Source of the DNA: an uncultured bacterium | Lineage (GTDB): Bacteria; Bacillota_I; Bacilli_A; RF39; UBA660 | Reading direction: 5' to 3' | Length of the DNA stretch: 64,000 nt | Assembly: GCA_949292245.1 (NCBI GenBank) | Contig: CASEYV010000001.1 | Location: 52,433 to 116,432 of the forward strand | In this document: in pieces, positions 3,910 to 47,354 of the stretch | Layout: each line of letters begins with the position of its first letter | Numbering within the stretch: the stretch's first letter is position 1 | Notes under the pieces: generated by a model | What the model was told of the DNA's origin: nothing | Databases searched by the model: none | The model's input: only the letters and a program-made list of their open reading frames with translations | Position numbers and translations under genes: made by a program

Positions 3910-3987
3910 TGGCATTCCCAGAGGGATTCGAACCCCCACTCTTTTCGTTCGTAGCGAAATGCTTTAGTCCAATTAAGCTATGGGAAC
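3910..3987 (-). tRNA. tRNA-Arg (anticodon ACG), CCA encoded
   Basis: The reverse complement folds as a cloverleaf. Acceptor stem is GTTCCCA/TGGGAAT, D-stem GCTT/AAGC with a GG loop, anticodon stem TTTCG/CGAAA around loop CTACGAA (U33, A37). T-arm is GGGGG TTCGAAT CCCTC, followed by discriminator G and CCA. Confidence 0.85.
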
Positions 3988-10585: not shown

Positions 10586-10816
10586 TTAGCCAAACATTTC
10601 GGCTTTACGCTGTCTCATACGTTCACGAGAAATAGCTTCTTTCATTTTTCTTCTTCTTTTTTCTGAATTAGATTCAAAAAATCTTTTTAATTTTAATTCT
10701 TTAAGTAATGGAGCTGTCTCATGTCTTAGACGATTTAATGCTTTGTTAATAGCATTTGTATCATTACCTTCAACATAAATGATAGTTCCAGATTTTTTTG
10801 GATTATATTTTTTCAT
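10586..10816 (-). CDS. rpsU: ribosomal protein bS21 homolog (phage-encoded)
   Basis: 76-aa basic protein. IIYVEGNDTNAINKALNRLRHETAPLLKELKLKRFFESNSEKRRRK matches the bS21 consensus (V.V.ENE..EKALRRFKR...K.G.L.E.RRR..YEKPS..RKRK). Confidence 0.75.
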   Translation of the reverse strand: MKKYNPKKSGTIIYVEGNDTNAINKALNRLRHETAPLLKELKLKRFFESNSEKRRRKMKEAISRERMRQRKAEMFG

Positions 10817-12120: not shown

Positions 12121-13446
12121 TTAAGCAATAGTAATAATTCCTCTTGCAGATAATGCATCAATTAATGCTTCTAATGAAGTTTTAACTTGAGCAACTTCTT
12201 CTCCTGCTGGTTTAGAAACAGTAGCACTTGCTTTTGTGCCTGTCATAATTTTATCACCACTTGGAATAGCTGTTTTTAAAGCATATTTTCCATCAGCATC
12301 TGTTTTTGTATAAGCATCGGTAATTCCATAACCATTTAAAGTTGTTGATTTATTAGCTTTACCATCTAATGCAGAAGTTGTAGCATAGCCAGATAAACTT
12401 GCTTTTGTTGCATAAGTTGATGTAGCATTAGCTGTTGTTAAATAATCATCTAATGCACTTGTATCGGCTTTATCAGCCAATTCAGATTTTGTTGCATAAG
12501 TTGATGTAGCAGTTTCTGTTGTTACATAAGCACTTAAAGCACTTGGTTGAACAGCTGTATCTGCTTTTGTACCTTGTGCTTTTGTAGCATATTTGCCATC
12601 AGTTTCTGTTTTTGTATATGCATCAGTAATTCCATAACCAGCTAACGTGGTTTCTTTATCTGCTTTGCCATTAAGAGCTGTTTTATCTGCTTTTGCTTCT
12701 AATGCAGAAGTAGTAGCATAGCCAGATAAACTTGCTTTTGTAGCATAAGTTGATGAAGCAGTTTCTGTTGTTACATAAGCACTTAAAGCACTTGTATCTG
12801 CTTTATCAGCTAATTCAGATTTTGTTGCATATGTAGATGAAGCAGCTGTTTTACTTAAATAAGTTGATGTAGCATTAGCTGTTGTTAAATAATCATCTAA
12901 TGTAGCTGGTTGAACAGCCGTATCTGCTTTTGTACCTTGTGCTTTTGTTGCATATTTTCCATCGGCTTCTGTTTTTGTGTATGCATCAGTAATGCCATAA
13001 CCATTTAAAGTTGTTGATTTATTAGCTTTTCCAGATAATGCACTTGTATCAGCTTTATTTGCCAATGCTGAATTCATTGCTTCAGTTGTAGCATAAGCAC
13101 TTAAAGCACTTGGTTGAACAGCTGTATCAGCTTTTGCACCTTGTGCTTTTGTTGCATACTCACCTTTTGCTTGAATTCCTAAATCATCTAATGATTTATT
13201 ACCACTTAATTCAACAGAATTAATTCGTGGTTTTCCTGTTAATGCAGAATAATCAGTAGCTCCACCAGAAGAACCTTCTCCACCAACATATGATAATTCA
13301 CTAAATGAATGTTCACCATCAAAAAGTTTTATTTTATTTGTATCGGTTTCATAAGCAATAACACCTTCTGACATTTTAGGATTTTCAGAAGCCCAATTAC
13401 TACTTGTATCTTGAATAAAATATTTTACATTTAATTTTTTAGACAT
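12121..13446 (-). CDS. tail fiber protein with tandem ~60-aa repeats (GYGITDAYTKTEADGKYATKAQG)
   Basis: N-terminal fiber motif (W..ENP....GVIAYETDTNKIKLFDG) and the INSVELSGNKSLDDLGIQAKGEY module shared with other fiber genes. Three repeats follow. C-terminus LEALIDALSARGIITIA resembles that of the next paralog. Confidence 0.7.
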   Translation of the reverse strand: MSKKLNVKYFIQDTSSNWASENPKMSEGVIAYETDTNKIKLFDGEHSFSELSYVGGEGSSGGATDYSALTGKPRINSVELSGNKSLDDLGIQAKGEYATKAQGAKADTAVQPSALSAYATTEAMNSALANKADTSALSGKANKSTTLNGYGITDAYTKTEADGKYATKAQGTKADTAVQPATLDDYLTTANATSTYLSKTAASSTYATKSELADKADTSALSAYVTTETASSTYATKASLSGYATTSALEAKADKTALNGKADKETTLAGYGITDAYTKTETDGKYATKAQGTKADTAVQPSALSAYVTTETATSTYATKSELADKADTSALDDYLTTANATSTYATKASLSGYATTSALDGKANKSTTLNGYGITDAYTKTDADGKYALKTAIPSGDKIMTGTKASATVSKPAGEEVAQVKTSLEALIDALSARGIITIA

Positions 13447-13474
13447 TTTTTAATCCTTTGTATTTTAATAATAT

Positions 13475-15013
13475 TTATGCAATAACACCTCTTGTTCTTA
13501 ATTGTGCCAAAATAGCATTAAGAGCTTCTATTAATGCTGAAATTTCAGTAACACTACCGCTATCTATATCTTGAACAGTTGGAGCTGTTCCAGACATTAA
13601 TGAAGTTGCAGCTGGAATAGAAGTTTTATCAGCTTTTTTATCTAATTCAGTGGTCATATTTTCAGTTGTAGCATAAGTTGATGTAGCTTCTGTTTTACTT
13701 AAATATGTTGAAGAAACAGATGCTGTTGTAGCATAAGCACTTAAAGCACTTGTATCGGCTTTATTTGCTAATTTACCATTTATCTCTGTTTGTGTATATG
13801 CATCAGTAATTCCGTAACCAGCTAATGTTGTTGATTTATTAGCTTTTCCAGCTAATGATGATGTTAATTCTGATTTCAAAGCATATTGTGACAATGATTC
13901 AGTAGTTGCATAATTAGCCAAAGCACTTGTATCGGCTTTATCATCAAGTAAACCATTTAATACTTCTGTTGTTGTATAATTAGCCAAAGCACTTGTATCG
14001 GCTTTATTTGCTAATTCAGTTTTTAAAGCATATTTACCGTCTGATGTAACTTTTGTGTATGCATCTGTAATTCCATAACCAGCTAATGTTGTTTCTTTAT
14101 CTGCTTTTGCTTCTAATGCAGAAGTTGTCGCATAGTCAGATAAACTTGCTTTTGTTGCATAAGTAGATGTGGCAGTTTCTGTTGTTACATAAGCACTTAA
14201 AGCACTTGGTTGAACAGCTGTATCTGCTTTTGAACCTTGTGCTTTTGTTGCATATTTGCCATCAGCTTCTGATTTTGTATATGCATCAGTAATGCCATAA
14301 CCAGCTAATGTAGTTTCTTTATCTGCTTTTCCAGCTAATGCACTTGTATCAGCTTTATTACCTAATTCAACTTTTGTAGCATATGTTGAATTAGCTGTTT
14401 CGGTAGTAACATACGCTTCTAATGTAGCAGGTTGAACAGCTGTATCTGCTTTTGTACCTTGTGCTTTTGTTGCATATTTGCCATCTGCTTCTGTTTTTGT
14501 GTATGCATCTGTAATTCCATAACCATTTAAAGTTGTTGATTTATTTGCTTTTCCATTAAGAGCTGTTACATCGGCTTTTTCAGCTAATTCAGTTTTTGTA
14601 GCATATGTTTCATTTAATTCAGATTCTGTTATAAAACCTTTTTCGTTTAATTCAGTTTCTGTTACATATTCAGCTGGAACAGATGTTAAGAAATTACTAT
14701 CATTTTGTAATTGAGAAACTTTTGTAGGTATAGCACTTGTATCAGCTTTATTTGCTAATTCAGATTTCAAAGCATATTCACCTTTTGCTTGAATACCTAA
14801 ATCATCTAATGATTTATTACCACTTAATTCAACGGAATTTATTTGTGGTTTATTAGATAAAGCAGTATAATCGGTAGTTCCACCAGATGTTGTTGAACTT
14901 AAAGTTCCATCACCAGATATAGCTAATCCAGAACCAACTTTAATACCACCTAATTGACTTGAAGAAGCAATAGGTAATACATATTCAGATGGAATAACTG
15001 GTTTATCTTCTAA
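13475..15013 (-). CDS. tail fiber distal module (paralog of 12121-13446 and 16551-18836); start unresolved, possibly fused to 15018-15650 by a +1 shift or disrupted
   Basis: The ORF track begins at a TTG at 14770, but the frame stays open and homologous upstream to 15013 (YNDLEDKPVIPSEYVLPIASSSQLGGIKVG...). There it meets an in-frame TAG where the paralog 16551-18836 has its TTG start and a Gln codon. Confidence 0.5.
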   Translation of the reverse strand, partial: LEDKPVIPSEYVLPIASSSQLGGIKVGSGLAISGDGTLSSTTSGGTTDYTALSNKPQINSVELSGNKSLDDLGIQAKGEYALKSELANKADTSAIPTKVSQLQNDSNFLTSVPAEYVTETELNEKGFITESELNETYATKTELAEKADVTALNGKANKSTTLNGYGITDAYTKTEADGKYATKAQGTKADTAVQPATLEAYVTTETANSTYATKVELGNKADTSALAGKADKETTLAGYGITDAYTKSEADGKYATKAQGSKADTAVQPSALSAYVTTETATSTYATKASLSDYATTSALEAKADKETTLAGYGITDAYTKVTSDGKYALKTELANKADTSALANYTTTEVLNGLLDDKADTSALANYATTESLSQYALKSELTSSLAGKANKSTTLAGYGITDAYTQTEINGKLANKADTSALSAYATTASVSSTYLSKTEATSTYATTENMTTELDKKADKTSIPAATSLMSGTAPTVQDIDSGSVTEISALIEALNAILAQLRTRGVIA

Positions 15014-15017
15014 GTCA

Positions 15018-15650
15018 TTATACTAATGAATCTTTATCTGCTTTAGCATTTAACATATCATTAACATCACTTGTAGTTGCATAACCTTTAGCTTTTAATT
15101 CAGTTTCTGTTACATATTCAGCTGGAACAGATGATAAAAATCCAGAATCATTTTCTAAATCTGATACTTTTGTTGGTATTGATGTAGAAGATGGTAAAGC
15201 ATTAACATCTTCGGCAGTTAAAACAATATTAGCATTCAATGGTTTTAAATTAATAGTTCTTGCTGTTGGAACATATTGTTCTAACATTAATTGAATTTCT
15301 TCTTTTGTATTAAATTTATCAAGAGCTTCGTTTCTTTCCATATAATTTTTTGAAGCTAATTCTTCTTCATCAATATATTTTAATTCTTCAATTTCTTCTT
15401 TTGTATATACTGATTCTTTATCAGCTTTTTCTTCTAATGTTGTGTTAATAGAAGAAATTTCTTGTTTGATAGCTGTATCGTTATAAGATTCTCCTTTTAA
15501 ATAAGGTAAATCTTTCCATGCGGTCATTCCATCACCAACTTTTATTTTATTAGTTGTTGTTTCATAACCAATTTCAGCCATATCTAAAATTGGATTAACT
15601 TCTAACCAATTTTCAGATGAATCATTTCTAATTTGTAATTTTGTTGCCAT
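15018..15650 (-). CDS. tail fiber proximal / attachment module
   Basis: N-terminal motif MATKLQIRNDSSENWLEVNPILDMAEIGYETTTNKIKVGDG is shared with 18826-19842. The gene ends 1 nt out of frame with the following distal module. Confidence 0.6.
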   Translation of the reverse strand: MATKLQIRNDSSENWLEVNPILDMAEIGYETTTNKIKVGDGMTAWKDLPYLKGESYNDTAIKQEISSINTTLEEKADKESVYTKEEIEELKYIDEEELASKNYMERNEALDKFNTKEEIQLMLEQYVPTARTINLKPLNANIVLTAEDVNALPSSTSIPTKVSDLENDSGFLSSVPAEYVTETELKAKGYATTSDVNDMLNAKADKDSLV

Positions 15651-15735
15651 AATTTTATCCTTAAATATTATAATTTATAATAATATTTATTGAATAAAAA
15701 AATAGCACTTATCTTTTTAATAAGTGCTATTTTAA

Positions 15736-16551
15736 TTATCTTTCATTCATAGGAACTTCAGAATTTTCATAAACAAATCTTGCATAAGTAACAGTAGCAT
15801 TTTTAATTTCAAAAGTAACGGTTTGACCTTTTGAAACAGGTAAATATAATCTTAAATTATCACCTATTCTATTAGCATTCATATGTATTGGTAATGCTGT
15901 TATATACATACCGATAAAACCATCGGCAGCAGAACTTGCACCAGATATACCTATATAACCATTATATAATACTTCATATGTTCCGTTATTTGTAACACTT
16001 GATGATATATCAATATATTTTGAACTTGGTTTATTTAATCCAGGACCAGAAATTTGATACCATGGTGTCCAACTTGATTGTTCATCATCATATGTATTTA
16101 AATTTCTTGCATATATATATTGTCCAGAACCAAAGTTTGATTCAGGTCTGCCACTAAAATGTGCATATTGCCAAGTTGCTTCTTTTAAATAAGAATCCAT
16201 TAAAAATTGTTGATGAACATCGATAAACCATTCACCACGAACAGAAGTATTAACAGGACAATTTAATGTATCTCTTGAATTAGCATCTATTGATACTTTA
16301 TATAATCCAGTTTCATGTATGGAATTAAAATCTGTATCAGCAGATAATGTTATAATATTTAATTTTTTATCTAATTCAGCATTAACATATTCATTAGTAG
16401 CATATTCACCTTTTGCTTGAATACCTAATTCTTCAAGTGTTTTATTACCATTTAATTCTATTGAATTAATTTGAGGTTTATTTAATAATGCAGTATAATT
16501 GGTATTATCTACGTTTCCTGCTATTATTTTATTACCTTGTCTTATACTCAT
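15736..16551 (-). CDS. tail fiber-associated protein sharing the INSIELNGNKTLEELGIQAKGEY module
   Basis: The 125-bp DNA segment 16367-16490 is nearly identical to 17688-17810 inside the next gene. Confidence 0.5.
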   Translation of the reverse strand: MSIRQGNKIIAGNVDNTNYTALLNKPQINSIELNGNKTLEELGIQAKGEYATNEYVNAELDKKLNIITLSADTDFNSIHETGLYKVSIDANSRDTLNCPVNTSVRGEWFIDVHQQFLMDSYLKEATWQYAHFSGRPESNFGSGQYIYARNLNTYDDEQSSWTPWYQISGPGLNKPSSKYIDISSSVTNNGTYEVLYNGYIGISGASSAADGFIGMYITALPIHMNANRIGDNLRLYLPVSKGQTVTFEIKNATVTYARFVYENSEVPMNER

Positions 16552-18836
16552 TATTTTACTCCTTCGTCGTAAACAAAGATGAATGAATATTCATCTTCTA
16601 TTGTACCTTTATATGTTACCCTAAGAGCGTCTCCCTTTTTACAAGGAATGAATATATAATGACCAATTTGTCCATTGACATTAGCTTCTACACTTCTTAT
16701 TCTTAATTGACTAGTTAAATTAATGAAATCAAGTGAACTAAAATTTTCAGAAGCTGAAGTAGCTCTTAGAGTTACCGATGCAGTATACCACCCATTAGCT
16801 GGAGCTGTATAAACAGTACCACTAGCTTCTAGAGTTAATTCTTCATATCTGGTGCTAGGCTTTCCTTGAGTGCTTACCCACTCTGTATCGTTTCTATCAA
16901 CAGCTTGGAACACGTTCTTAGGACTGAATGAGGTTATGCGACTGTTTTCACAAGTAAACGAAGCACAAATCATTGATTCTTGGATAGACCAATTAGTTGT
17001 TTGATTTCCTACATACATAAAGTTTTTGGGAACTAAATAATAGACAGACCAACCAGTTAAAGAGGTATAACTTGGAAGGGCATTAACTTCTTTATATAAA
17101 CTTAAATCTACAATACCTAGTCCAATTTTGATTATTTGCAGTACGAACTCGCCAGTAGTAGTATCAGCAAGTGTATATACAAGAACATTGTTGATAACTT
17201 GTTTAATATTGTTCAAACTACCATCAGTATTTCTGCCGTTAGGTATTAATCCCTCTACACCCGGTAAAGCAAAGATAGTGCTACCTATATAGCCAAAGCC
17301 GTTAAATGTTTCAACAGTTTTATCAGAATAAATGATTGCGATTGGCAACGAGCATACTGTAATATCCCCAGAATCAGCTTTAAACTTAACTTCTTTGGTT
17401 GTAGTGTTGTACCATAGATAGCTTGAATTAGATGGCTCTGTATCTTGGCTGAAAGATAAAGATGGCGGAACAGCTTTAATTGTGTTATCTTCACCATACA
17501 CTAAAAGATATTCAGTAGCAACAGAAGCAATATCAAGAGTAACATCAGAAGAAACTGTAAAGAAACTACTATCAGCCTTGTAAGGTTTACTTCCTGATTT
17601 TAATGTTAATACCGTGTCTGATGTTTCTATCTTAATATCTTGTGGAATTTTAGTTAAGCAATTTGTAATTTGATTTGTATTTAATTTTTTATCTAATTCA
17701 GCATTAACATATTCATTAGTAGCATAATCACCACTTGCTTGAATACCTAATTCTTCAAGTGTTTTATTACCATTTAATTCTATTGAATTAATTTGAGGTT
17801 TATTTTCTAATTCTTCATAATTTGTTGTACCACTTGGAGACATATTATAATCATCGGTAATAATATATGTTATATCATCACTATATTCTGGTAGTGAATT
17901 ATATTCACTCAAAGTTCCTTTCCATAATTTAGCATTAACATAATTATCAGATAATACAACATTATCAGGAACGTTAATTGTTGCTGAAATAGTATCATCA
18001 ACAATAGATATACCTTCACCAGCTGTTAATACATTTTGTTTAGATAATAATTTATCAGATAAATTTTTAACTGTTATTACAGATGATTCACTTAATCCTT
18101 CATTTAATTCTTCAACAGAAGCTAATTTAACAATACCTTTTGTTGTATCATTACTTTCTGGTAATGTTGACCAAAAAGCAGATGTTCCATTTGTTGATAA
18201 AAATGTTCCTTGTTTATCAGCTTGTGCAGGTAATGAATCTTTTTCAGCTATTTTAACATCAACTTCTTCTTTTGTATAAGCATCAGTAATTCCATACCCA
18301 GCTAACGATGTTGATTTTAAAGCATATGGAGTTAAATCAATAGTTTCAGATAACTTATCCCATTTATCTCCGTCCCAAGCATAATTAGCACCTGTATCTT
18401 CAACATTATAAACATCACCGATTACATTATTTTCTAATGGTAAATGGTCTATTGTTGGAACACTACCTTTAAATTTATAAACAGATGATAATCTAGCTTC
18501 AACTTCTTCTTTTGTATAAGCATCAGTAATTCCATACCCAGCTAATGTATCAGCTTTATCAGCTTTTAAATTTAAAGCTGATTGTGTTGCTTTTGAAGTT
18601 GCTAAATCCAAATCTTCGGCAGTTTGACCTTCAATTAATGTTATACCGCCGATTGATGGTTTGTGTTCCAAATCATTATAATTTATTATTGCTGTTTTAA
18701 CTGATAGTGTACCATCTGTTTCTGATATATTTAATCCAGAACCAACTTTAATACCACCTAATTGACTTGAAGAAGCAATAGGTAATACATATTCAGATGG
18801 AATAACTGGTTTATCTTCTAAGTCATTATATTGCAA
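16551..18836 (-). CDS. tail fiber distal protein (761 aa), TTG start overlapping upstream stop
   Basis: N-terminus MQYNDLEDKPVIPSEYVLPIASSSQLGGIKVG, GYGITDAYTKEEV repeats and the INSIELNGNKTLEELGIQ module. Confidence 0.65.
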   Translation of the reverse strand: MQYNDLEDKPVIPSEYVLPIASSSQLGGIKVGSGLNISETDGTLSVKTAIINYNDLEHKPSIGGITLIEGQTAEDLDLATSKATQSALNLKADKADTLAGYGITDAYTKEEVEARLSSVYKFKGSVPTIDHLPLENNVIGDVYNVEDTGANYAWDGDKWDKLSETIDLTPYALKSTSLAGYGITDAYTKEEVDVKIAEKDSLPAQADKQGTFLSTNGTSAFWSTLPESNDTTKGIVKLASVEELNEGLSESSVITVKNLSDKLLSKQNVLTAGEGISIVDDTISATINVPDNVVLSDNYVNAKLWKGTLSEYNSLPEYSDDITYIITDDYNMSPSGTTNYEELENKPQINSIELNGNKTLEELGIQASGDYATNEYVNAELDKKLNTNQITNCLTKIPQDIKIETSDTVLTLKSGSKPYKADSSFFTVSSDVTLDIASVATEYLLVYGEDNTIKAVPPSLSFSQDTEPSNSSYLWYNTTTKEVKFKADSGDITVCSLPIAIIYSDKTVETFNGFGYIGSTIFALPGVEGLIPNGRNTDGSLNNIKQVINNVLVYTLADTTTGEFVLQIIKIGLGIVDLSLYKEVNALPSYTSLTGWSVYYLVPKNFMYVGNQTTNWSIQESMICASFTCENSRITSFSPKNVFQAVDRNDTEWVSTQGKPSTRYEELTLEASGTVYTAPANGWYTASVTLRATSASENFSSLDFINLTSQLRIRSVEANVNGQIGHYIFIPCKKGDALRVTYKGTIEDEYSFIFVYDEGVK

Positions 18837-19842
18837 CTGTTGCTAAATTAGGTTTGTTAATAATAACAGCATTACCTTCTTCTGCCAACCAATCTGATTG
18901 AACATTTGGAACTGTATTAGTAATAACATTATTTTCAATAGATATACCATAACCTGTTGTTAAATTATCTTGTTTTTCATTTAATGCTGTTTGCATAGCT
19001 ATTGAAATAGGTTTATTAATATCAGAAGTATTGTTTACATTTCCTAATCCTATTTGTTCTTTTGTTACTTTATGAGGATTTAATGTATTTGAAATGTGAG
19101 AAATTAAATCTGATGCTTCTGCTTTACTTGAAATATCAGATTTTAAAGCATATTCATCTAATGTATCAGTTAAATCATTTTTTAATACATAATTGTCTAA
19201 TGAATTTATTGATGCTTTTGTGTCAACTTCTTCTTTTAATAATTCTAAATCTTCCTTAATAGGTTGGTCATCATAATTAGAAACATTAGCTAATCTTTCT
19301 AATTCTGATATAGATATTAATGAATATCCATCAATTTTATCAACTTTTTTATCTAATTCTTCATTTAATTTATCAACAGATACTATATCACCGGTAATAT
19401 CAGACCAAACAATTTCACCTTGTAATACTTTTAAGTATTTTCCTTCTTGGTCTTCAATAGCTGGTATTTTTAATAAATTATTAAAAAATGTATCAACATC
19501 AGATTTAGAATATGTATTATCAATGTCAGCTTTTAAAGCTAAACCATTAACAACATCTTCATATGAAGCATAATTTCCGATTGGTTGAATACCTAAATCA
19601 ATTAAAGAAACATTTCCATTTAATTCAATATTATTAATTTGAGGTTTATTAATAATATCATAATAATTTATGGTGTCAGCAAAATACTCTAAGTTAGAAT
19701 ATGTATCTACACCATTACCTATTTTTATTTTAGTTTTACCATTATCTAAATATTCAATACCCATTTCACCTTTAGCTAATATAGGATTGATTTCATACCA
19801 ATTTTGTGTAGTATCACGTCTAATTTGTATTTGAACTGCCAT
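18826..19842 (-). CDS. tail fiber proximal module
   Basis: N-terminal MAVQIQIRRDTTQNWYEINPILAKGEMGIEYLDNGKTKIKIGNG is the conserved phage fiber N-terminal motif. It also carries the INNIELNGNVSLIDLGIQ module. Confidence 0.65.
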   Translation of the reverse strand: MAVQIQIRRDTTQNWYEINPILAKGEMGIEYLDNGKTKIKIGNGVDTYSNLEYFADTINYYDIINKPQINNIELNGNVSLIDLGIQPIGNYASYEDVVNGLALKADIDNTYSKSDVDTFFNNLLKIPAIEDQEGKYLKVLQGEIVWSDITGDIVSVDKLNEELDKKVDKIDGYSLISISELERLANVSNYDDQPIKEDLELLKEEVDTKASINSLDNYVLKNDLTDTLDEYALKSDISSKAEASDLISHISNTLNPHKVTKEQIGLGNVNNTSDINKPISIAMQTALNEKQDNLTTGYGISIENNVITNTVPNVQSDWLAEEGNAVIINKPNLATVAI

Positions 19843-19856
19843 AATTAACCTTTAAA

Positions 19857-20450
19857 TTAATTTTTTAATATTTCTTCAACTGTAATTAATGCTTCTGCTG
19901 TTGCATAACTATCACAAGGACCTTCAACAACTAATTCTTTTAATTGCCATCCTAAAGGATTACCAGATGGTGTTTTTGTATTATCAAAATAATTTGCAAT
20001 AACATTAAAATCTTCAACTAATGCTTTAGCAATTAATCTTTTAATAGCTTTTGTTCCAATAAAGAATACTCTACCATCTCTTAATTTAACTATTTCTTCT
20101 TCATCGGCATATTCTGAACTATCAACTTGAACCATTAAACCATCAGCTTGTGTATATACTAATTTGAAATTCATTTTTGTTGGAGGAGTTATATGATTTG
20201 CTCCTTCAGTAGTTACTTCAACCAATGTATCTAAACCTCTTTGTAAATTTAAACACATTTGATTAAATCTTACCAATCCACGGGCTTTAATTTTGTATTG
20301 TTCCAATGTTTCACTTTCGATAGGTTGTGTCATTATATCAAAATCTGAATAATCTGATACTTTTAAATTATCTAAAAATCCTTTTCGAGTATCAGAAGAA
20401 CCAGCGGCGTTTGCTATACTAACTTTATAAATTTTTGTTCCTTGAATCAT
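19857..20450 (-). CDS. hypothetical protein within fiber locus (possible fiber-associated/assembly protein)
   Basis: 197-aa ORF between fiber genes; assignment is from context only. Confidence 0.3.
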   Translation of the reverse strand: MIQGTKIYKVSIANAAGSSDTRKGFLDNLKVSDYSDFDIMTQPIESETLEQYKIKARGLVRFNQMCLNLQRGLDTLVEVTTEGANHITPPTKMNFKLVYTQADGLMVQVDSSEYADEEEIVKLRDGRVFFIGTKAIKRLIAKALVEDFNVIANYFDNTKTPSGNPLGWQLKELVVEGPCDSYATAEALITVEEILKN

Positions 20451-26531: not shown

Positions 26532-26576
26532 GTTATATTTATTCAAATAAATATCTTTATAATATAAGGAATAGTA

Positions 26577-27386
26577 ATGCAGGTTGTTAATTTATATATT
26601 AAAAAAAACGTATATTATAATTTAGCTTCAATAAAGTATGGAGATAAAATGAATTTACCAATGTATAATAAAGATATTAAATTATTTAAAGGTATTGAGA
26701 ACAAAATTCAATTTTCAATAAGAGACCATGATAGAAAAGCATACCCATTAAGAGATAAAGAAATATTCTTAAATATAATTAATCAAAAATTAAACACCAA
26801 AATAACTAAAAAATTTTGGTGTTTAGATGCATACAAAGGTTTATATGAAGTTATTTTTTCTGAATCAGAAATGAGAGATTTTGAACCATCAACATATACA
26901 GCAACAGTATATGCAAAAGATTTAGAAGGTAACGAAGATTTATTATATTCAGGAACTGATTGGAATCCAGTTTTCCATATAGAAGTTGTTGATGGTGTTA
27001 TGGATGTATTTAAACCATCTATTAAATTAAATCCACAAGAATTTTTACATAATTTTTATATCAATAAAGAAGATGGACAACGATATGATTATTATGTTTC
27101 ATCAAGATTAAAAGCCGATGAAACTCAATATCATACCGCTTCAATAACTGTAGAAGATTATTTCTTAGGTAAAATAACAATGGAAGGTTCTATGGAACCA
27201 AATCCATTAGATACTGAATCAGATTGGTTTGTAATTGATGAAAAAGAATATACAGATGAAAATAAAGTAAAAGAAGAAACATTTCAATTCAATAATGAAT
27301 TAAATTGCTTATGGGTAAGATTTAAATATACTTTAAAATCTGCTAATTTCCGTGGCAATATTTCAGAAATATTGTATAGAAATTAG
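26577..27386 (+). CDS. hypothetical protein
   Basis: 269-aa ORF. Confidence 0.4.
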   Translation: MQVVNLYIKKNVYYNLASIKYGDKMNLPMYNKDIKLFKGIENKIQFSIRDHDRKAYPLRDKEIFLNIINQKLNTKITKKFWCLDAYKGLYEVIFSESEMRDFEPSTYTATVYAKDLEGNEDLLYSGTDWNPVFHIEVVDGVMDVFKPSIKLNPQEFLHNFYINKEDGQRYDYYVSSRLKADETQYHTASITVEDYFLGKITMEGSMEPNPLDTESDWFVIDEKEYTDENKVKEETFQFNNELNCLWVRFKYTLKSANFRGNISEILYRN

Positions 27387-28814: not shown

Positions 28815-28876
28815 TATTATACATCCTTATTATTATAAATAATTTATATAACATTTTTTAGGAAAAGTCAATTAAA

Positions 28877-30493
28877 ATGGTGAAAAAAGGTAATACTATT
28901 AGATTTGGTAATAAAATATTTGTTATCGAAAATTTCGATTCTGATAATTTTTTATTAAAAGATAAAGAAACAAATATCATAAATTGGGTCAGTAAAAAAG
29001 AAGTAAAAGAAAATTTAGAACCAATAAATTTTTCTTCATCTATATTATTAGAATCAAATTGTCGTAAATCCTCATTTAATAATAATTATATCACAATCAA
29101 TTTATATGAAAATAATAATAGTTCTACATTTGAAATAATTGACGGTAAAAATATATATACTAAAACATATGATTATAATAAAAATCGTGCTATATATGAA
29201 TTTAATAAATTTTTTAAATATACCAATGAATTAACACCATTTAGATTAAAAAAATATGGTTTTTTGTTAAAAGAATCTGAAAAAGAACCTAAATTTAATG
29301 ATGCTTTTTGGAAATGGTTTGGTAATAGTGTATATAAAAACAGTAGAGGTAATCCTTTAATTGCTTATCATAATTCTCCAAATAAATTTAATGAATTTGA
29401 TATTAATAAAGTTGGTTCTCGTGATTTTGGATTTTATGGTTATGGTATTTATTTTTCAACACATAAAAGTATAGCTAGTCAATATGGAAAAAATCATTAT
29501 GCTGTTTATTTAAAAATGGAAAATCCATTTATGTTTGACCGTGAACATTATAAATATTCTATCACTGAAGAAGCATATGCTATTGTTAAAAAATATGAAG
29601 AATACAATTTATTAACAGAAGATGAATTAAATATAGTTCATGAATTAGAAAATATTTTTAATAATACAAAAATTCAAGAAGAAAAAACAACAGTTATTGA
29701 AAATGGACGAACATATCCAACAACAGTTTATCATTTACAATATAAAGATAAAACATATTCAACAGACCCACATATGGTATTAGATGAAAAAGATGCTATG
29801 ACTCAATTTATATATAATGATTTTGGTAATTTATTAAAATCATTAAAACAAATATATAATGTTTGTATGAGACAACGTAATAAACAATTTGCTCAAATGT
29901 TACAAAAAAATGGTTATGATAGTATTTGGGCTGGAACAGAAATAGTAGTATTTAATCCAAAGCAAATTAAATCTGTTAAAAATGTTGGAACATGGAATCC
30001 TGATTCAAATAATATATATGAATCAATGAATGTTATAGAAACAAAAGAATCTCCAATATATATTACAAATAATATGTATGATATTTTAAAATTACAGAAA
30101 AAAATGACATCATTAAGAGTTCTTATTGATGAACAAAAGAAAATATATATGATTGGTAATGCTTTATATCATATTCATGGAGAACTTTTTGATGAAGCTA
30201 TTGAAGCAGGATATTATAATTTTAATAACGAAAGAGAAAAAGATATATATTGGGAAAATCTTCCAGCTATTATAATTGATACAGATGATTTTTTAAAACA
30301 AGAAAGAAAAGATGATTATTTTGATGGAATACTTCGTTGTAATGGTTTTGTTGTTTATTATAGAACTAATAATTATACAGAAAGCGATTTTACTAAAACA
30401 AAACTTTATAATTTATTAGTATCAAAATATAATGGTAAGCAAGAAATAAATGAAAATAAATTATCTATTGGGGATATAGTAAAGAGCAAATAG
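28877..30493 (+). CDS. protein with a PARP-like (H-Y-E class) ADP-ribosyltransferase signature
   Basis: Residues 163-205 are IAYHNSPNKFNEFDINKVGSRDFGFYGYGIYFSTHKSIASQY. The PARP catalytic signature is LLWHGSRTTNF......[20 protein letters not shown]. They share H-x-S, the N-F pair, G-x-GIYF-[AS] and the KS-A-Y tail. Confidence 0.45.
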   Translation: MVKKGNTIRFGNKIFVIENFDSDNFLLKDKETNIINWVSKKEVKENLEPINFSSSILLESNCRKSSFNNNYITINLYENNNSSTFEIIDGKNIYTKTYDYNKNRAIYEFNKFFKYTNELTPFRLKKYGFLLKESEKEPKFNDAFWKWFGNSVYKNSRGNPLIAYHNSPNKFNEFDINKVGSRDFGFYGYGIYFSTHKSIASQYGKNHYAVYLKMENPFMFDREHYKYSITEEAYAIVKKYEEYNLLTEDELNIVHELENIFNNTKIQEEKTTVIENGRTYPTTVYHLQYKDKTYSTDPHMVLDEKDAMTQFIYNDFGNLLKSLKQIYNVCMRQRNKQFAQMLQKNGYDSIWAGTEIVVFNPKQIKSVKNVGTWNPDSNNIYESMNVIETKESPIYITNNMYDILKLQKKMTSLRVLIDEQKKIYMIGNALYHIHGELFDEAIEAGYYNFNNEREKDIYWENLPAIIIDTDDFLKQERKDDYFDGILRCNGFVVYYRTNNYTESDFTKTKLYNLLVSKYNGKQEINENKLSIGDIVKSK

Positions 30494-31202: not shown

Positions 31203-32456
31203 TCAATTTTCAATATTATTTGACAAATATTTTATCATTTCTTCGTGATAAATTTCACCAAATTTTTTTCCAGAAAATTTAGAAAGTCTTTCTTGAACTT
31301 TTTCTGGTAAATCTTTTAAAGTTATGCCGTGCATAACATCAAAAATTTTTAACATTCTTTGTTCAATTTTTTGTCTTTCTATTTTTTCTTCATCTGAAAC
31401 TGTTAATGCTCTACCATAACAATCACATCTAGTTACTTCAATGAAATCAATCAATCTTTGACGATTTTTGAAATTTAATGAAATAGCTTTAATCATATCG
31501 TATTGCTTTCTTAGCTTCATTTGATGAAATCTATGAGCATTCATATGATAACGACAAGATATTAAAGCAAAATCACGATATTCATTTGGAATTTTAACTC
31601 TATCACATAATTTTTCAATTACTGATAATCCATTAAATTCATGACCATGATGAGCTGGTAAAATATCTTGTGGAGTTAATGCTTTACCTAAATCATGACA
31701 CAATACAGCAAATTTAACCATTGGAGATAATTGATTCCAATCAGCAACTCGCAAACACAACATTGTATGTTCAAAAGAATTACCTTCTGGATGATATTCC
31801 AATTTTTCTGGAGTATCAATTAAAGCATACAATTCTGGAAGAACAATTTTTAATGCTCCACTTTCTTGGAGATTTCTAATGAATTTTTCTGTTATACAAT
31901 TAGATTGTAATGCTTTTTCAATTTCTTTCCATACTCTTTCTTCTGTTAAGTGTTCAATCATTTTATTTTCAACCATCGTTTGCAATAAATTCATAGTATT
32001 TCTTTCAATATTAAAATCTAATTGAGCTGAAAAACGGCAAGCTCTTAATAATCTTAATGGGTCTTCGATAAAAGTTTCATCACGAACAGCTCGTAATAAT
32101 TTATTTTTTAAATCATCTTGACCATTAAAATAATCAATTACATTTCCATTTTCATCTAATGCCATAGCATTAATTGTAAAATCTCTACGAACTAAATCAT
32201 CTTCCAAAGAAACATCAGATGAAAATTCAAATTCAAAATCAGTATGTTTATCACCAATTTTTCTTTCTTTTCTTGCTAAAGCATATTCTTCGTTTGTTTC
32301 TGGGTGTAAAAACACAGGAAAATCTTTACCTACTTGGTGAAAACCAAGAGATTCCATTTCGGAAATAGAAGAACCAACAACAACATAATCATTATCATGT
32401 GATGTTCTATCTAATAATTTATCTCTAACTGCCCCACCAACTAAATAAGTTTTCAT
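31203..32456 (-). CDS. cca: CCA-adding tRNA nucleotidyltransferase (class II, with HD domain)
   Basis: N-terminal LVGGAVRDKLL, the RRDFTINA-type head domain and an HD motif (CHDLGKALTP, HHGHE). Confidence 0.85.
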   Translation of the reverse strand: MKTYLVGGAVRDKLLDRTSHDNDYVVVGSSISEMESLGFHQVGKDFPVFLHPETNEEYALARKERKIGDKHTDFEFEFSSDVSLEDDLVRRDFTINAMALDENGNVIDYFNGQDDLKNKLLRAVRDETFIEDPLRLLRACRFSAQLDFNIERNTMNLLQTMVENKMIEHLTEERVWKEIEKALQSNCITEKFIRNLQESGALKIVLPELYALIDTPEKLEYHPEGNSFEHTMLCLRVADWNQLSPMVKFAVLCHDLGKALTPQDILPAHHGHEFNGLSVIEKLCDRVKIPNEYRDFALISCRYHMNAHRFHQMKLRKQYDMIKAISLNFKNRQRLIDFIEVTRCDCYGRALTVSDEEKIERQKIEQRMLKIFDVMHGITLKDLPEKVQERLSKFSGKKFGEIYHEEMIKYLSNNIEN

Positions 32457-32772: not shown

Positions 32773-33924
32773 TCAAGCATTTTTAATAAAATCTTCAACC
32801 ATATCGGCTAATTTATCATAAGTTAAATCGCTAATATATTGCATAGCACAATCGTATTTGTTATCGATAGCTTTAAACATATAATTAGAGAACTTACAAT
32901 TTTTTAATATGTATTGAGCTTTATCTTTTCTGCTTTCTAATGAATTGATGTAATCAATATTAGAGTTATATTCATCATCGATTGCGTTAATCAATGAGTG
33001 ATATCCATCTAACATTCTTTGAATATTTAATTTATATTCAGAGAAATAATTTAAGAATTCATCAATTTCATTATTGACAATTAATATCATTGCTTTTTTA
33101 GGAGTTAAAATTCCTTGTCCTTTCAAATGATGCACTGCAACATAAGATGGAGATTTAACTTTAACTCTATTGAAATTTTTATCTACAACGACATATCCTT
33201 CTTCTGTATATGGTAATTCATTTGCTGCCAAAATACATTCATTTAATGATTTAAAACCATATTGTTTTGGAGTTTTAAATATTTTTGCCAAAGGATGGTC
33301 ATAAATTAAAATTTCTTCTAATGATTTGTTATTTCTAACACCAATCAAGCATAAATTAATTCCTTCATAAGGAATAACAACTTTATTATATGGTGAAATT
33401 AATTCAAACATATAAGTATAGTTTTCTTCGAATAAATCTAACCATTTATCTTTTGAAATTGATTTTAATGGTTCAGCATTTTCAATTAATTCCTTATAAT
33501 TAGAATATTTAAAATCTAAATTTTGAGCAACTTCGGCTTTTGAAGCATCGATAGTTCCATTAGTAGAAATCAACAAATCATTACCCAATCTAACTATTTT
33601 AATTAAAGAACCGTCAATTTTTTGAGTAATTTTAGCAGATTTCCAATCTATTTCTGGACAATATGATTCACCATAATTTCCAAATTTGTAGAATGGAACA
33701 GATACTGGTTCTAATGAATCAATATCAATAATCAATCCACGGCATTCTCTAACGATTTCATTATTAAAATCAGAAGAAATTTGGTTATATTTTAATAATG
33801 CTAAATTTCTACCATACATATTATCTTTAGATACAGATATACAATATGGAGATTGAGCTAAATCATCTTCCCAATTTTTATGTGATTTAATATATTCAAT
33901 AACTTTTAACATTTCAATCTCCAT
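32773..33924 (-). CDS. rnlA: RNA ligase 1 (T4 RnlA-like)
   Basis: Motif I TQKIDGSL (KxDG). ECRGLIIDIDS aligns with T4 ECRGIMFEMDG. EGYVVVDKNFNRVKVKSPSYVAVH aligns with [24 protein letters not shown]. Confidence 0.85.
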   Translation of the reverse strand: MEIEMLKVIEYIKSHKNWEDDLAQSPYCISVSKDNMYGRNLALLKYNQISSDFNNEIVRECRGLIIDIDSLEPVSVPFYKFGNYGESYCPEIDWKSAKITQKIDGSLIKIVRLGNDLLISTNGTIDASKAEVAQNLDFKYSNYKELIENAEPLKSISKDKWLDLFEENYTYMFELISPYNKVVIPYEGINLCLIGVRNNKSLEEILIYDHPLAKIFKTPKQYGFKSLNECILAANELPYTEEGYVVVDKNFNRVKVKSPSYVAVHHLKGQGILTPKKAMILIVNNEIDEFLNYFSEYKLNIQRMLDGYHSLINAIDDEYNSNIDYINSLESRKDKAQYILKNCKFSNYMFKAIDNKYDCAMQYISDLTYDKLADMVEDFIKNA

Positions 33925-33988
33925 TAAAAAAACTCATCTATTTAAGATGAGTTTAATATATCATAATTTATTTTAATGTCAACACATT

Positions 33989-45119: not shown

Positions 45120-47354
45120 TTATTCCCCAAAATAAATTTTATTATCTTTTATTTTTAATAATATTTTTCCACCATTTTTATATTTTCCAAAAACAATATC
45201 TTTTGCTATCACATTTTTAATTTCATTAGTTATTATATGTTTCATAGGTCTAGCACCGTTATTGGAATTTTCAACCTTTTTAACGATATAATTTATTATA
45301 TCATCATTATATTCAAAATCAATCATTTTTTTTGACAAAATAGATTTTAATTCGTCCAAAAATTTTATGCAAATTGTTTTTAATACATCTGATGACAAAT
45401 TATTAAAAGTAATAGTTGAATCAATTCTATTTCTAAATTCAGGTAAAAATCTATCTTCATAATCTTGGTCAGATGGTGTATAATCATCATTACCAAAACC
45501 AATTCGTATTTTATGAGAATTATACGAACCGACATTTGATGTCATAATTAAATAAACATGCTCAAATGAAACTGATTTACCAGATGATGAAGTCAATTTA
45601 CCATTATCCATTACTTGTAATAAAACATTATGTATTTTAGAATTAGCTTTTTCAATTTCATCTAATAATAAAATACAAGATGGATGTTCATCAATAGCAT
45701 TAATTAATAAACCATTACCTGATTTACCATCTCCGAAACCTTTATATCCAGGAGGAGCACCTAGTAATTTAGACACACTATGTTCTTCCATATATTCAGA
45801 CATATCAAATCTAACCAATGGAATATTCAAAATTTTTGACAATACTTTACATATTTCTGTTTTACCGACACCAGAAGAACCTTTAAACATCAAAGATATA
45901 GCCGTTTTATTTGTTTCTCTTAATCCAGATTTAGAAATAATAACAGCTTCACTGACTTTTTTTACAGCTTCATCTTGTCCAATAATTTCTTTTTTTATAG
46001 TATTTTCTAAATTTTTATAAATTTCTTCTTCTGATAAAGAAATATTATTTAAAGGTATGCCTAATAATATAGACAATACTTTATAAATCATATCTTCTGA
46101 TATTTCTTTTTCATTGTGATATGTAGCATAAGCTCCGACTGTATCTAAAATATCAATCGCTTTTTCAGGAAAAAACTTATTATAAAAATATCTATTACAA
46201 TAATCCATTATTAAATCAATTATTTTTTCTGAAAAAGTAACATTAAAATTATTTTCATATAATGATTTAATATTCATTATAATATTTTTAGTTTCATCAA
46301 ATGATGGTTCTTTAACAGTAAATTTAAAAAAGTTTTTTACAAAATTGTCATCTTTTTCAATAAACCTACGATAATCTTCATTAGTTGTAATGCCAATAAT
46401 TTTAATTTTACCATCACAAAGCATTGGCTTAAATAATGATGATAAATCATTTTGACTTGAATAATCACCATTTCCACACATAAAATGTATGTCATCAATA
46501 ATTAAAACTACATTTTCTTTTTTATTTAAAATATTATGTAATGTTTTTACTCTATTTTCAATTTCACCTTTAACCATAATATTTGCAGTAAAAGATAAAT
46601 TATCTAATAATAGAAATTCTTTATCAGTATATTTTTCACTGTAAATTTTTGCCAAGCCTTCTACTAACTTAGATTTACCAACACCATGATTACCAACAAG
46701 TATAATATTTGGTTTATCATGTCTTAATAAAATATATTGTAACAACTCTAATTCATCATCACGACCAATTAAAGGTTGCCATTCTTTCCCCTTTACTTTT
46801 TCAGTTAAATTAATTGTATATTGTGATAAAAATAATTGTTCTTTTTTATTTGAAGAACCATCTAATGTTTCATTTATAATTTCTGATACACGATTAGACA
46901 TATTAGATGAATAAGATTGATAAATTTTTGTCAAAAATAATGGACTAACATTATTTGACAATAATATTTTTTGAGAAAAAGTTTCTTCCATAAACAAAAA
47001 AGATGCAATGACATTTGTTATAAATAAAACATCTTTATTTATAACAACATCTTCATTACATTTATGACATAGATTGCAATATCCTAAAAATACCAAAACA
47101 TGTGGAGAAATTTCTATATTATCGCTTGAACTTTCTATATGTTCCATTAAAGGATAATTAGAAATAAAATCTTCTAATTCTTTTGTAATTTTTTTATAAT
47201 CAATTTTATATTTTTTAAATAACTTTAAAAAATGTTCGTCTTTCATAACGACATATAAAACATGTTCCAAATGAACATATTTTGAACTATAATTTTGGGC
47301 CACTTTTTTTGATTCATTAATAAGTTCTTGTAATCTTTCAACAAAATCAATCAT
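45120..47354 (-). CDS. ClpA-like AAA+ unfoldase (Clp_N domain, two AAA modules, IGF ClpP-docking loop)
   Basis: D1 Walker A LVGNHGVGKS and D2 Walker A FKGSSGVGKTE. The sensor is GARPMKHII. KIRIGFGNDD...FRNRID aligns with the ClpA IGL loop RKSIGLIHQDN...FRNRLD. Confidence 0.8.
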   Translation of the reverse strand: MIDFVERLQELINESKKVAQNYSSKYVHLEHVLYVVMKDEHFLKLFKKYKIDYKKITKELEDFISNYPLMEHIESSSDNIEISPHVLVFLGYCNLCHKCNEDVVINKDVLFITNVIASFLFMEETFSQKILLSNNVSPLFLTKIYQSYSSNMSNRVSEIINETLDGSSNKKEQLFLSQYTINLTEKVKGKEWQPLIGRDDELELLQYILLRHDKPNIILVGNHGVGKSKLVEGLAKIYSEKYTDKEFLLLDNLSFTANIMVKGEIENRVKTLHNILNKKENVVLIIDDIHFMCGNGDYSSQNDLSSLFKPMLCDGKIKIIGITTNEDYRRFIEKDDNFVKNFFKFTVKEPSFDETKNIIMNIKSLYENNFNVTFSEKIIDLIMDYCNRYFYNKFFPEKAIDILDTVGAYATYHNEKEISEDMIYKVLSILLGIPLNNISLSEEEIYKNLENTIKKEIIGQDEAVKKVSEAVIISKSGLRETNKTAISLMFKGSSGVGKTEICKVLSKILNIPLVRFDMSEYMEEHSVSKLLGAPPGYKGFGDGKSGNGLLINAIDEHPSCILLLDEIEKANSKIHNVLLQVMDNGKLTSSSGKSVSFEHVYLIMTSNVGSYNSHKIRIGFGNDDYTPSDQDYEDRFLPEFRNRIDSTITFNNLSSDVLKTICIKFLDELKSILSKKMIDFEYNDDIINYIVKKVENSNNGARPMKHIITNEIKNVIAKDIVFGKYKNGGKILLKIKDNKIYFGE

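Follow-up and report, generated by a model that had tools for sequence, protein, structure and literature searches.

Fibre genes A and B, two tail-fibre genes in the 64,000-nucleotide stretch of DNA that was analysed (the window), each appear as a pair of out-of-frame halves. We slightly favour, at a probability of about 0.52, the reading that recent frame-breaking deletions in a recombination-prone linker caused these splits and that two accessory fibres were lost, as opposed to programmed recoding. At the level of sequence comparison, it is well established that bases are missing, that all relatives have the genes intact and that recoding signals are absent.

Fibre gene A is encoded on the minus strand and begins with a proximal stub of 210 aa (15018–15650), which was taken from the list of open reading frames, carries an Mtd_N anchor and continues in frame in the relatives P0001-5, P0121 and P0132. 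The 3′ end of this ORF reads GAT TCA TTA GTA TAA (DSLV*), its premature TAA (15020–15018) being a product of the deletion. At the deletion junction, TTAG|TATAAT (15021–15025, minus strand), 23 nt (CAACAGTTGCAACATCTGGTTCT) are absent between positions 15023 and 15022. The distal part of the gene follows in the +1 frame (13475–15022, minus strand); it is open over 515 codons from 15022 to 13475, ends in the C-terminal sequence of the family (...AILAQLRTRGVIA) and is 94–95% identical to the corresponding regions of P0001 and P0121, which are intact. Across the junction, the +1 frame reads ATG CTA AAG CAG ATA AAG ATT CAT TAG TAT AAT GAC, or MLKQIKIH*YNDLEDKPVIPSEYV. The ATG (15047–15049, minus strand) opens an 8-codon reading, MLKQIKIH-TAG, that is an out-of-frame by-product of AAT GCT AAA..., i.e. 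the +1-frame reading of Asn-Ala-Lys... codons, and the same string is found in intact relatives. The TAG (15025–15023), in frame with the distal part, consists of S-L codons read out of frame. A canonical start is absent from the first 84 codons of the distal part; the earliest is a TTG at 14770 (14768–14770, minus strand) with AAAGGTG upstream, where the public gene call P0008 begins (431 aa, against 515 for the whole frame). This TTG is a fortuitous internal start, not gene A's own.

Fibre gene B, on the same strand, is split in the same manner. Its proximal stub (18826–19842, minus strand; 338 aa, with Mtd_N) terminates at a premature TAA (18828–18826), and the corresponding proteins of relatives are fused and 1085–1103 aa long. 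The 0 frame closes with ...GCA ATA TAA (ATVAI*), and the +1 frame reads TAG CAA CAG TTG CAA TAT AAT GAC. At the deletion junction, GCAA|TATAAT (18829–18836, minus strand), 11 nt (CATCTGGTTCT) are absent between 18831 and 18830. From there, the distal part runs in the +1 frame for ~760 codons (16551–18830, minus strand), aligning with residues ~342–1103 of the single ORF of contig L036. The apparent TTG start (18836–18834) and the CAA that follows are T-V-A codons (ACA GTT GCA A) read out of frame. They also occur in intact relatives, and no Shine-Dalgarno sequence lies upstream of the TTG.

A first-pass annotation of this DNA had described the ORF at 15018–15650 ending in DSLV-TAA, the YNDLEDKP... 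continuation in the +1 frame and the TAG just upstream, all of which we found in the sequence. It counted 82 codons without a canonical start, where the count is 84 (first start TTG 14770), and it overlooked the ATG at 15049–15047, eight codons before the TAG. The paralogous pair 18826–19842/16551–18836, which it used as an intact two-gene reference with a TTG start, does have the same junction; its status as an intact reference is lost, since 11 nt of its linker are gone.

The comparison with relatives, which that annotation had proposed for the junction, covered 13 close-relative proteins and 10 DNA junctions in six related contigs (L036–L039, L047 and L048). Both fibres are unsplit, single ORFs in 13/13 proteins and 10/10 DNA junctions. 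The relatives have one continuous ORF through ...DSLATVATSGSYNDLEDKP..., their junctions reading ...DSL-ATVATSGS-YNDLEDKP... and ...NLATVA-TSGS-YNDLEDKP... at the protein level and TTAGCAACAGTTGC(A/G)ACATCTGGTTCT|TATAATGA in all 10 DNA junctions; it is against these sequences that copy A lacks 23 nt and copy B 11 nt. P0001–P0005 are single ORFs of 515–696 aa that match the virtual fusion at 92–96% identity and 100% coverage, and synteny places single genes of 1089–1103 aa and 515–696 aa at the matching positions in relatives. In the 90% clusters that hold both proximal stubs and the 431-aa distal-A call, all other members (P0121, P0132 and P0125–P0130) read through the linker. The linker motif is internal in every fully read related protein containing it, and none of them begins at the linker. 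The flanks of both gaps are collinear with and 93–98% identical to those of relatives, and the ~22 kb aligned to relatives (93–98% identity) contain no other uncompensated frame-breaking indels.

Split versions are confined to a single public contig of 283,511 bp. A megablast of 13400–19900 against a GenBank phage collection gave no match and hence no cultured relative with an annotation, the exact 23-mer TATAATGACTTAGAAGATAAACC is absent from IMG/VR, and the exact proximal A protein has no record in the contig index. A search of JGI metagenomes with the pattern RTATAATGAYTTAGAAGATAAACC returned four unrelated intact genes with TCA-TAT only and no further lesion. Among the three readings that the first-pass annotation had offered, a recently inactivated cassette is the only one that would fit this sequence evidence: a +1 shift at GUA-UAA is contradicted by relatives that are all in frame and by the lack of a recoding signal, and in place of reinitiation at a non-canonical codon the relatives hold one continuous ORF. 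Its suggestion of a possible 1-nt error that fuses the frames or makes a start gives way to gaps of 23 and 11 nt.

Copies A and B share a repeat. A 99-nt block at 14924–15022 in copy A is identical to 18732–18830 in copy B (both minus strand) and comprises the 33 codons that remain of the shared 42-codon linker LATVATSGS|YNDLEDKPVIPSEYVLPIASSSQLGGIKVGSGL. It is the longest exact repeat of the window, and both lesions are located at its 5′ edge. Identity between the copies begins exactly at TATAATGAC, as the first-pass annotation had it: from TATAAT it covers 99 nt rightwards and 0 nt leftwards; the 23-mer TATAATGACTTAGAAGATAAACC at this edge has two exact occurrences (15000–15022 and 18808–18830), with 0 expected. 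On its right, the block stops where homology naturally ends, since relatives diverge there as well. The coincidence of a 99-nt block with an assembler k-mer is only weakly suggestive, the right edge being such a natural boundary.

The deletion lengths, 23 and 11 nt, are both 2 mod 3, and the deletions share their 3′ end, just before TATAATGAC; the left ends and the lengths of the two gaps differ. Neither deletion has microhomology, and no copy of the deleted sequence was found elsewhere in the window with up to 3 mismatches. A templated origin of the junction sequences, from a quasi-palindrome or direct repeat, was rejected, as there is no nearby donor and the sole match is a chance 13/14 at 11267. 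A new promoter arising from the junction TATAAT was also rejected, since no promoter-like site uses it. The double gap pattern with its common 3′ end is not chance. A shared cause may lie behind that end, for example a DNA break in the linker or recombination gone wrong there; that one nucleotide position was hit twice might indicate targeted cleavage, or else an assembly failure that recurs at the repeats of phage fibre genes. A more specific version of real deletions seems improbable to us: the 3′ end TCT^TAT would mark a site-specific double-strand break in the linker, made by a CRISPR or restriction nuclease of the host or by a homing-type endonuclease whose recognition sequence occurs in both fibre genes, leaving an escape mutant with both targets destroyed, or a linker deletion that gene conversion later repairs would switch single fibres on and off. 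A scan of GTDB genomes for CRISPR spacers with one 22-mer (TTGCRACATCTGGTTCTTATAA) retrieved no spacer; its three hits were fibre-like ORFs of MAGs, all unrelated.

In the reading that we favour, A and B were each a single gene in the ancestral state, in which an Mtd_N anchor and a shaft were followed by a conserved linker of 42 codons (126 nt) and then by a variable distal module. Gene A would later have lost 23 nt from the 5′ part of its linker, and gene B 11 nt. With lengths of 2 mod 3 and a shared end just before TATAATGAC, these deletions would lead translation into a TAA, reached one codon (A) or two codons (B) further on. The predicted products, anchor stubs of 210 and 338 aa without the distal receptor-binding parts, are probably non-functional as fibres. 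The distal modules would go untranslated in the +1 frame or would be made weakly from fortuitous internal starts.

The architecture of the fibre family is consistent with such an ancestral state. Both proximal parts match Pfam Mtd_N (PF18454) above the gathering score (A, E=5e-11; B, E=2e-8). The complete fibres of relatives carry Mtd_N and the ...LAQLRTRGVIA end (A) on one chain, and in the window the Mtd_N anchor and the C-terminal end fall in different frames. The break is located inside the conserved ATVATSGSY motif, not between domains. Both distal ORFs contain zero stop codons, and their N/S counts resemble those of intact relatives. Relaxed selection in the distal modules was considered and set aside, the lineage-specific N/S counts being too few and too similar to those of relatives to inform. 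The probability of finding no stop is ~0.06 under the assumption that all 47 window-specific substitutions accumulated neutrally, which, together with the open distal ORFs, argues for a recent event.

An assembly, polishing or curation artefact is a real possibility, though one we lean against. The linkers of the real phage would in that case be intact, and the gaps would date from the resolving or joining of a 126-nt near-exact repeat, whose core was placed next to unique flanks that had been trimmed. Several observations that weigh against real deletions also favour this explanation. The lesions coincide with the 5′ edge of the longest exact repeat, the kind of place where assemblers and curators err, and the identical block that was kept measures exactly 99 nt. 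They share one 3′ end and have zero microhomology, which is unusual for two independent spontaneous events. They are unique to one public contig, with 13 proteins and 10 DNA junctions of relatives intact, and both distal modules are perfectly open and free of decay, fitting either an artefact or continued expression. However, a pure de Bruijn graph contig cannot hold junction k-mers that are missing from the reads, which is an established property of assemblers of this type. Furthermore, the remaining 22 kb that were compared are without such errors, the differing lengths and left ends of the gaps suggest no obvious single systematic error, and the 99-nt block ends on the right at the natural homology boundary described above. 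We consider it slightly more likely than not that the lesions exist in the phage DNA itself and not just in its assembly.

Programmed ribosomal frameshifting, by +1 (or −2) at GUA-UAA in copy A and AUA-UAA in copy B, would yield a short and a long product from each locus. Its appeal lies in the geometry: in both copies, the 0-frame stop coincides exactly with the point from which the +1 frame continues, this layout of the junction occurs twice, both distal frames are fully open, and a UAA follows the last sense codon as a slow A-site codon. The latter is created trivially by the deletion. Known programmed +1 sites, such as CUU-UGA-C in Escherichia coli prfB and those in the capsid and tail genes of Listeria phage PSA, likewise have a 0-frame stop at the shift point and the continuation in the +1 frame. 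In contrast to these, the window has no shift-prone P-site codon, Shine-Dalgarno stimulator, RNA structure or conservation at the junctions. By codon–anticodon rules, GUA (A) and AUA (B) in the P site cannot re-pair on the +1 codon UAU. Neither copy has a purine-rich Shine-Dalgarno-like sequence within 15 nt upstream, and the fold of 14900–15060 is not unusual (z = -0.87 versus shuffles). The split is not conserved, every relative being in frame (13 proteins, 10 DNA junctions), and the flanks are the same as in these in-frame relatives, which argues that no dedicated signal has evolved. A frameshift fusion would, moreover, be without 4–8 residues of the widely conserved ATVATSGSY motif. We regard frameshifting as highly improbable.

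A related mechanism, bypassing as in T4 gene 60, depends on a take-off codon that is followed by a stop, on a matching landing codon ~50 nt away and on a take-off hairpin, all of them conserved. Copy A resembles it in having GUA followed by a stop, with an in-frame GUA 43 nt downstream in the distal frame. In contrast to gene 60, a matching landing codon at a similar distance is missing from copy B, no take-off stem-loop is present, and the relatives have no coding gap.

Another possibility is that these are genuine two-part fibres, whose distal modules are translated alone (in B from TTG 18836, through reinitiation or coupling; in A from a non-canonical codon or TTG 14770) and join the stubs non-covalently. 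The TTG two codons ahead of YNDL in B would suit such a start, as would TTG 14770 with its Shine-Dalgarno-like AAAGGTG and its use in the public gene call. Yet the TTG of B is ACA GTT GCA out of frame, lacks a Shine-Dalgarno sequence and is present in intact relatives too, while copy A has no start for 84 codons. In addition, no fully read related protein starts at the linker, and the break lies inside a conserved motif instead of between domains, making this organisation very unlikely.

In the distal frame, an ATG precedes the TAG by eight codons, and this, together with the CAA at the matching codon of the paralog, raises the idea of amber readthrough or TAG-to-Gln reassignment. Distal A would then be translated from ATG 15049 through TAG 15025–15023, giving MLKQIKIH-Q-YNDLEDKP.... 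Phages with a reassigned stop codon read TAG as Gln (code 15), and a late structural gene with a TAG in frame close to its start, where a paralog has CAA, is reminiscent of them. Here, unlike in code 15 phages, there is one instance, TAG otherwise serves as a terminator (ordinary ORFs such as 26568–27386 and 28862–30493 end in it), and no suppressor tRNA is found in the 64-kb window, whose only tRNA is a tRNA-Arg(ACG). If TAG is read as sense, ORF length grows by only 522 nt, approximately the contribution of this one junction. The sole other TAG-separated same-frame pair (28859) is antisense to a neighbouring gene and lies beside an ordinary ATG at 28877. As the ATG...TAG string also occurs out of frame in intact relatives and copy B is left unexplained, we find this idea barely credible.

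The closest parallel to the deletion reading comes from phage lambda, where the stf gene of lambda PaPa is frameshifted (orf401/orf314) and that of Ur-lambda is intact. Loss of an accessory fibre by frameshift is known and can be either tolerated or selected (PMC12617516; PMC2762979). By analogy, the splits of fibres A and B appear to be lesions like the one that laboratory lambda carries in stf. In both cases, a small indel turns an accessory fibre gene into two adjacent out-of-frame ORFs, with halves that stay recognisable and open and a wild relative that is intact. As in this type of lesion, close relatives have one ORF over both halves, the indel is not a multiple of 3 and the rest is collinear. 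The present case differs in that two paralogs are affected in one linker at one 3′ end, with gaps of 23 and 11 nt, and in that its source is a metagenome-type contig, so that an artefact may be involved. For annotation, the four public ORF calls (210, 431, 338 and 761 aa) would represent two disrupted fibre genes and not a candidate recoding site. Should the lesions be real, two of the several fibres of this jumbo phage lineage would have been deprived of their distal modules, with effects on host range.

The linker itself may be a place where fibre modules are exchanged. In the G segment of phage Mu and the C segment of P1 (Sc/Sv), constant and variable tail-fibre modules are exchanged at a conserved crossover. 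The window is similar in that a conserved sequence within the fibre gene joins a constant anchor to exchangeable distal parts. Unlike Mu and P1, it has no invertase and no inverted exact repeat of at least 30 nt, and what it shows is a deletion in place of a switch. Exchange at the linker presumably proceeds by homologous recombination, given the presence of a gene for a UvsX-like recombinase. P0132 is a natural chimera exchanged at this point; its proximal module is 100% identical to that of the window, and its linker is intact.

Two paralogous fibre genes on the minus strand, A and B, are most likely single genes that have each been cut by a frame-breaking micro-deletion. The proximal ORF of gene A (15018-15650) ends in GAT TCA TTA GTA TAA, while the distal part, one base out of frame, reads TAT AAT GAC TTA GAA... 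(YNDLEDKP...) and is open for 515 codons to 13475. The codon just ahead of its TAT AAT is TAG, and an ATG at 15049-15047 opens the same frame eight codons ahead of this TAG. In gene B (proximal ORF 18826-19842, distal ORF 16551-18836), the 0 frame reads GCA ATA TAA and the +1 frame TAG CAA CAG TTG CAA TAT AAT GAC. The two copies have nothing in common to the left of TATAAT, versus 99 identical bases to its right. Re-reading both copies recovered every sequence observation made at these junctions by the first-pass annotation. The lack of a canonical start early in A distal also holds, except that the stretch spans 84 codons rather than 82.

A virtual fusion of both halves of A was used as a query and found five proteins with 92-96% identity over 100% of its length. 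These are single ORFs of 515-696 aa, each with Mtd_N, and all read ...NAKADKDSL-ATVATSGS-YNDLEDKPVIPSEYV... across the junction. Apart from the window's own proteins, fused proteins (P0121 and P0132 for A; P0125-P0130 for B) are the sole members of the 90% clusters to which the two proximal stubs and the 431-aa distal-A call belong. The B relatives read ...NKPNLATVA-TSGS-YNDLEDKP..., and P0132 combines a proximal module 100% identical to that of A with an intact linker. On the relatives' contigs, which have 93-98% identical flanks and full synteny with the window, one 1089-1103-aa gene takes the place of B proximal and distal, and one 515-732-aa gene that of A proximal and distal. At ten junctions in six loci, their DNA reads TTAGCAACAGTTGC(A/G)ACATCTGGTTCT followed directly by TATAATGA. 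Compared with these, junction A is TTAG joined to TATAATGA, missing CAACAGTTGCAACATCTGGTTCT (23 nt), and junction B is TTAGCAACAGTTGCAA joined to TATAATGA, missing CATCTGGTTCT (11 nt); copy B, previously taken as an intact two-gene reference, thus has the same kind of lesion. In more distant homologues, among them 30-60% identical fibres on many contigs, LATVATSGSYNDLxxKP is always internal and never at the start. Junction A (15015-15029, minus strand) also creates an inverted repeat with 6-bp arms, TCATTA-GTA-TAATGA, whose arms lie 26 nt apart in intact relatives, on either side of the deleted segment; this may be a coincidence or may hint at how the deletion arose.

The proposed TTG-CAA start of B distal is what ACA GTT GCA A gives when the frame is shifted by one base, and the ATG...CAT TAG string ahead of A distal is an out-of-frame reading of AAT GCT AAA GCA GAT AAA GAT TCA TTA G. 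Since both strings are also found in intact relatives, neither is an evolved start or recoded codon. Reassignment of TAG has no support: it terminates ordinary ORFs in the window, reading it as sense adds only 522 nt in total to long ORFs, and the one further pair of same-frame ORFs split by a TAG lies antisense to a neighbouring gene, beside a normal ATG start. No suppressor tRNA was found in the 64-kb window, where the only tRNA is Arg(ACG). The +1 shift at GUA-UAA offered by the first-pass annotation fares no better, as the P-site codons GUA (A) and AUA (B) are unable to re-pair on UAU, the junctions carry no Shine-Dalgarno-like stimulator, RNA structure at junction A is unremarkable (z = -0.87), none of the relatives has the two-frame arrangement, and the shifted product would be incomplete in a strongly conserved motif. 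Moreover, the in-frame relatives have the same flanking sequence, so no frameshift signal has evolved. For a T4 gene 60-type bypass, two GUA triplets separated by 43 nt are present in A, but B has nothing of the kind. The TATAAT of the junction belongs to no promoter-like site. Recoding interpretations are not supported.

Both deletions lie within the opening 27 nt of a 126-nt linker common to the two genes. Taken at face value, the record encodes anchor stubs of 210 (A) and 338 aa (B); the A stub is without the family C-terminal ...LAQLRTRGVIA end, which is found out of frame with it. Neither distal module has a credible start. The 431-aa protein of the public annotation begins at an internal TTG, and the AAAGGTG ahead of this codon is fortuitous. 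Over the ~22 kb compared with relatives, no other frame-breaking indel is left uncompensated. The distal frames are free of decay, with N/S counts similar to the values for intact relatives; had all 47 window-specific substitutions been neutral, the probability of finding no stop would be ~0.06. The event is therefore either recent or absent from the DNA altogether. The earlier suggestion of a recently inactivated cassette is supported by the single ORFs of the relatives, although an artefact has to be taken seriously as an alternative.

We give a probability of about 0.5 that the lesions are real. Graph assemblers are unable to invent junctions, and the remainder of the compared record is clean, which also speaks against the gaps being an assembly artefact. 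In lambda, accessory fibres are well known to be lost through frameshifts, a loss that is selectable (PMC12617516, PMC2762979), and we count this likeness in favour of real lesions. An artefact is nevertheless a possibility of some weight, as both gaps end at the same nucleotide, lack microhomology, lie at the edge of the window's longest exact repeat (99 nt versus 71 nt for the next) and occur in one contig only. By inference, two independent random deletions in the block would share a 3′ end with a chance of ~1/27 to 1/126, making a common cause likely. Candidates are aberrant linker recombination, a site-specific break, the assembly procedure, or gene conversion of one lesion and then a second loss, of 12 nt. 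Frameshift-split fibre genes are a feature of an ordinary kind; the curious point is that two paralogs were struck at the same nucleotide.

The linker, LATVATSGSYNDLEDKPVIPSEYVLPIASSSQLGGIKVGSGL (126 nt, 42 codons), lies at 14924-15022 and 18732-18830 (minus strand), with a further 27 nt upstream in the relatives' loci L036, L038, L039 and L047. Inside any one relative, the 126 nt of copy A match those of copy B at 97-99% identity, whereas the sequences on either side are unrelated. Chimeras occur naturally, such as P0132 (anchor A with a B-type distal part), P0004 (anchor A with a C-terminal end of the type seen in the neighbouring 441-aa gene) and a 179-aa hybrid in contig L003, all with exchange points in the linker or fibre repeats. 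From these sequence patterns, the linker and the GYGITDAYTK-type repeats look like recombination joints for fibre-module swapping, which makes it plausible that biological and computational errors alike concentrate there. The distal fibre parts (12121-14770, minus strand) and those of relatives consist of units of ~40-50 aa (…TTLxGYGITDAYTKxExDGKYATKAQGxKADTAVQP…) that vary in number among relatives, with fibres of 515 to 732 aa, and neighbouring genes have many exact repeats of 30-60 nt in common. An exact copy of the 22-mer TTGCAACATCTGGTTCTTATAA, which encodes VATSGSYN, is also found in fibre-like ORFs of 35-43% G+C that are otherwise unrelated, on MAG contigs from Clostridia, Alphaproteobacteria and Ca. 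Enterousia (L044, L045 and L046). The motif is widespread, its DNA now and then identical in distant settings.

The fibre-gene cluster occupies 12.1-22.6 kb on the minus strand, in the order 702-aa gene, 197-aa gene, B proximal (338 aa), B distal (761 aa), 271-aa gene, A proximal (210 aa), A distal and 441-aa gene. Both proximal ORFs match the Mtd_N anchor domain above the Pfam gathering cut-off; the N-terminus of the 441-aa gene has a weak, sub-threshold match. The slot of the 271-aa gene (15736-16551, minus strand), between A and B, holds 447 aa in L038 (8572-9915) and several small ORFs in L039 (7830-9915), and is empty in L036 and L047, making it another highly variable place in the cluster. 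This gene is separated from A by a terminator-like hairpin of 14-15 bp followed by a T run (15699-15733), readable on both strands, which suggests that A may begin its own transcription unit.

The window (25% G+C) is phage DNA, encoding a baseplate hub/lysozyme, virion proteins, a UvsX-like recombinase, a gp32-like SSB, an RNA ligase and a CCA-adding enzyme. The fibre region has no match in the GenBank phage collection; its exact proteins occur in public data on one 283,511-bp contig and the relatives on contigs of 276-289 kb, identifying a jumbo phage whose only records are metagenome-type assemblies. Usual jumbo-phage accessory genes are present on the minus strand: tRNA-Arg(ACG) (3910-3987), CCA-adding tRNA nucleotidyltransferase (31203-32456), RNA ligase/fibre-attachment-like protein (32773-33933) and Lon-like ATP-dependent protease (45120-47363). 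Finally, a 76-aa ORF (10586-10816, minus strand), flanked by SSB-like and membrane-protein genes and kept at the same position in L036, L038, L039 and L048, may encode a phage S21-like protein, with a Pfam Ribosomal_S21 match (E=1.3e-5, 25.3 bits) slightly below the cut-off of 27.
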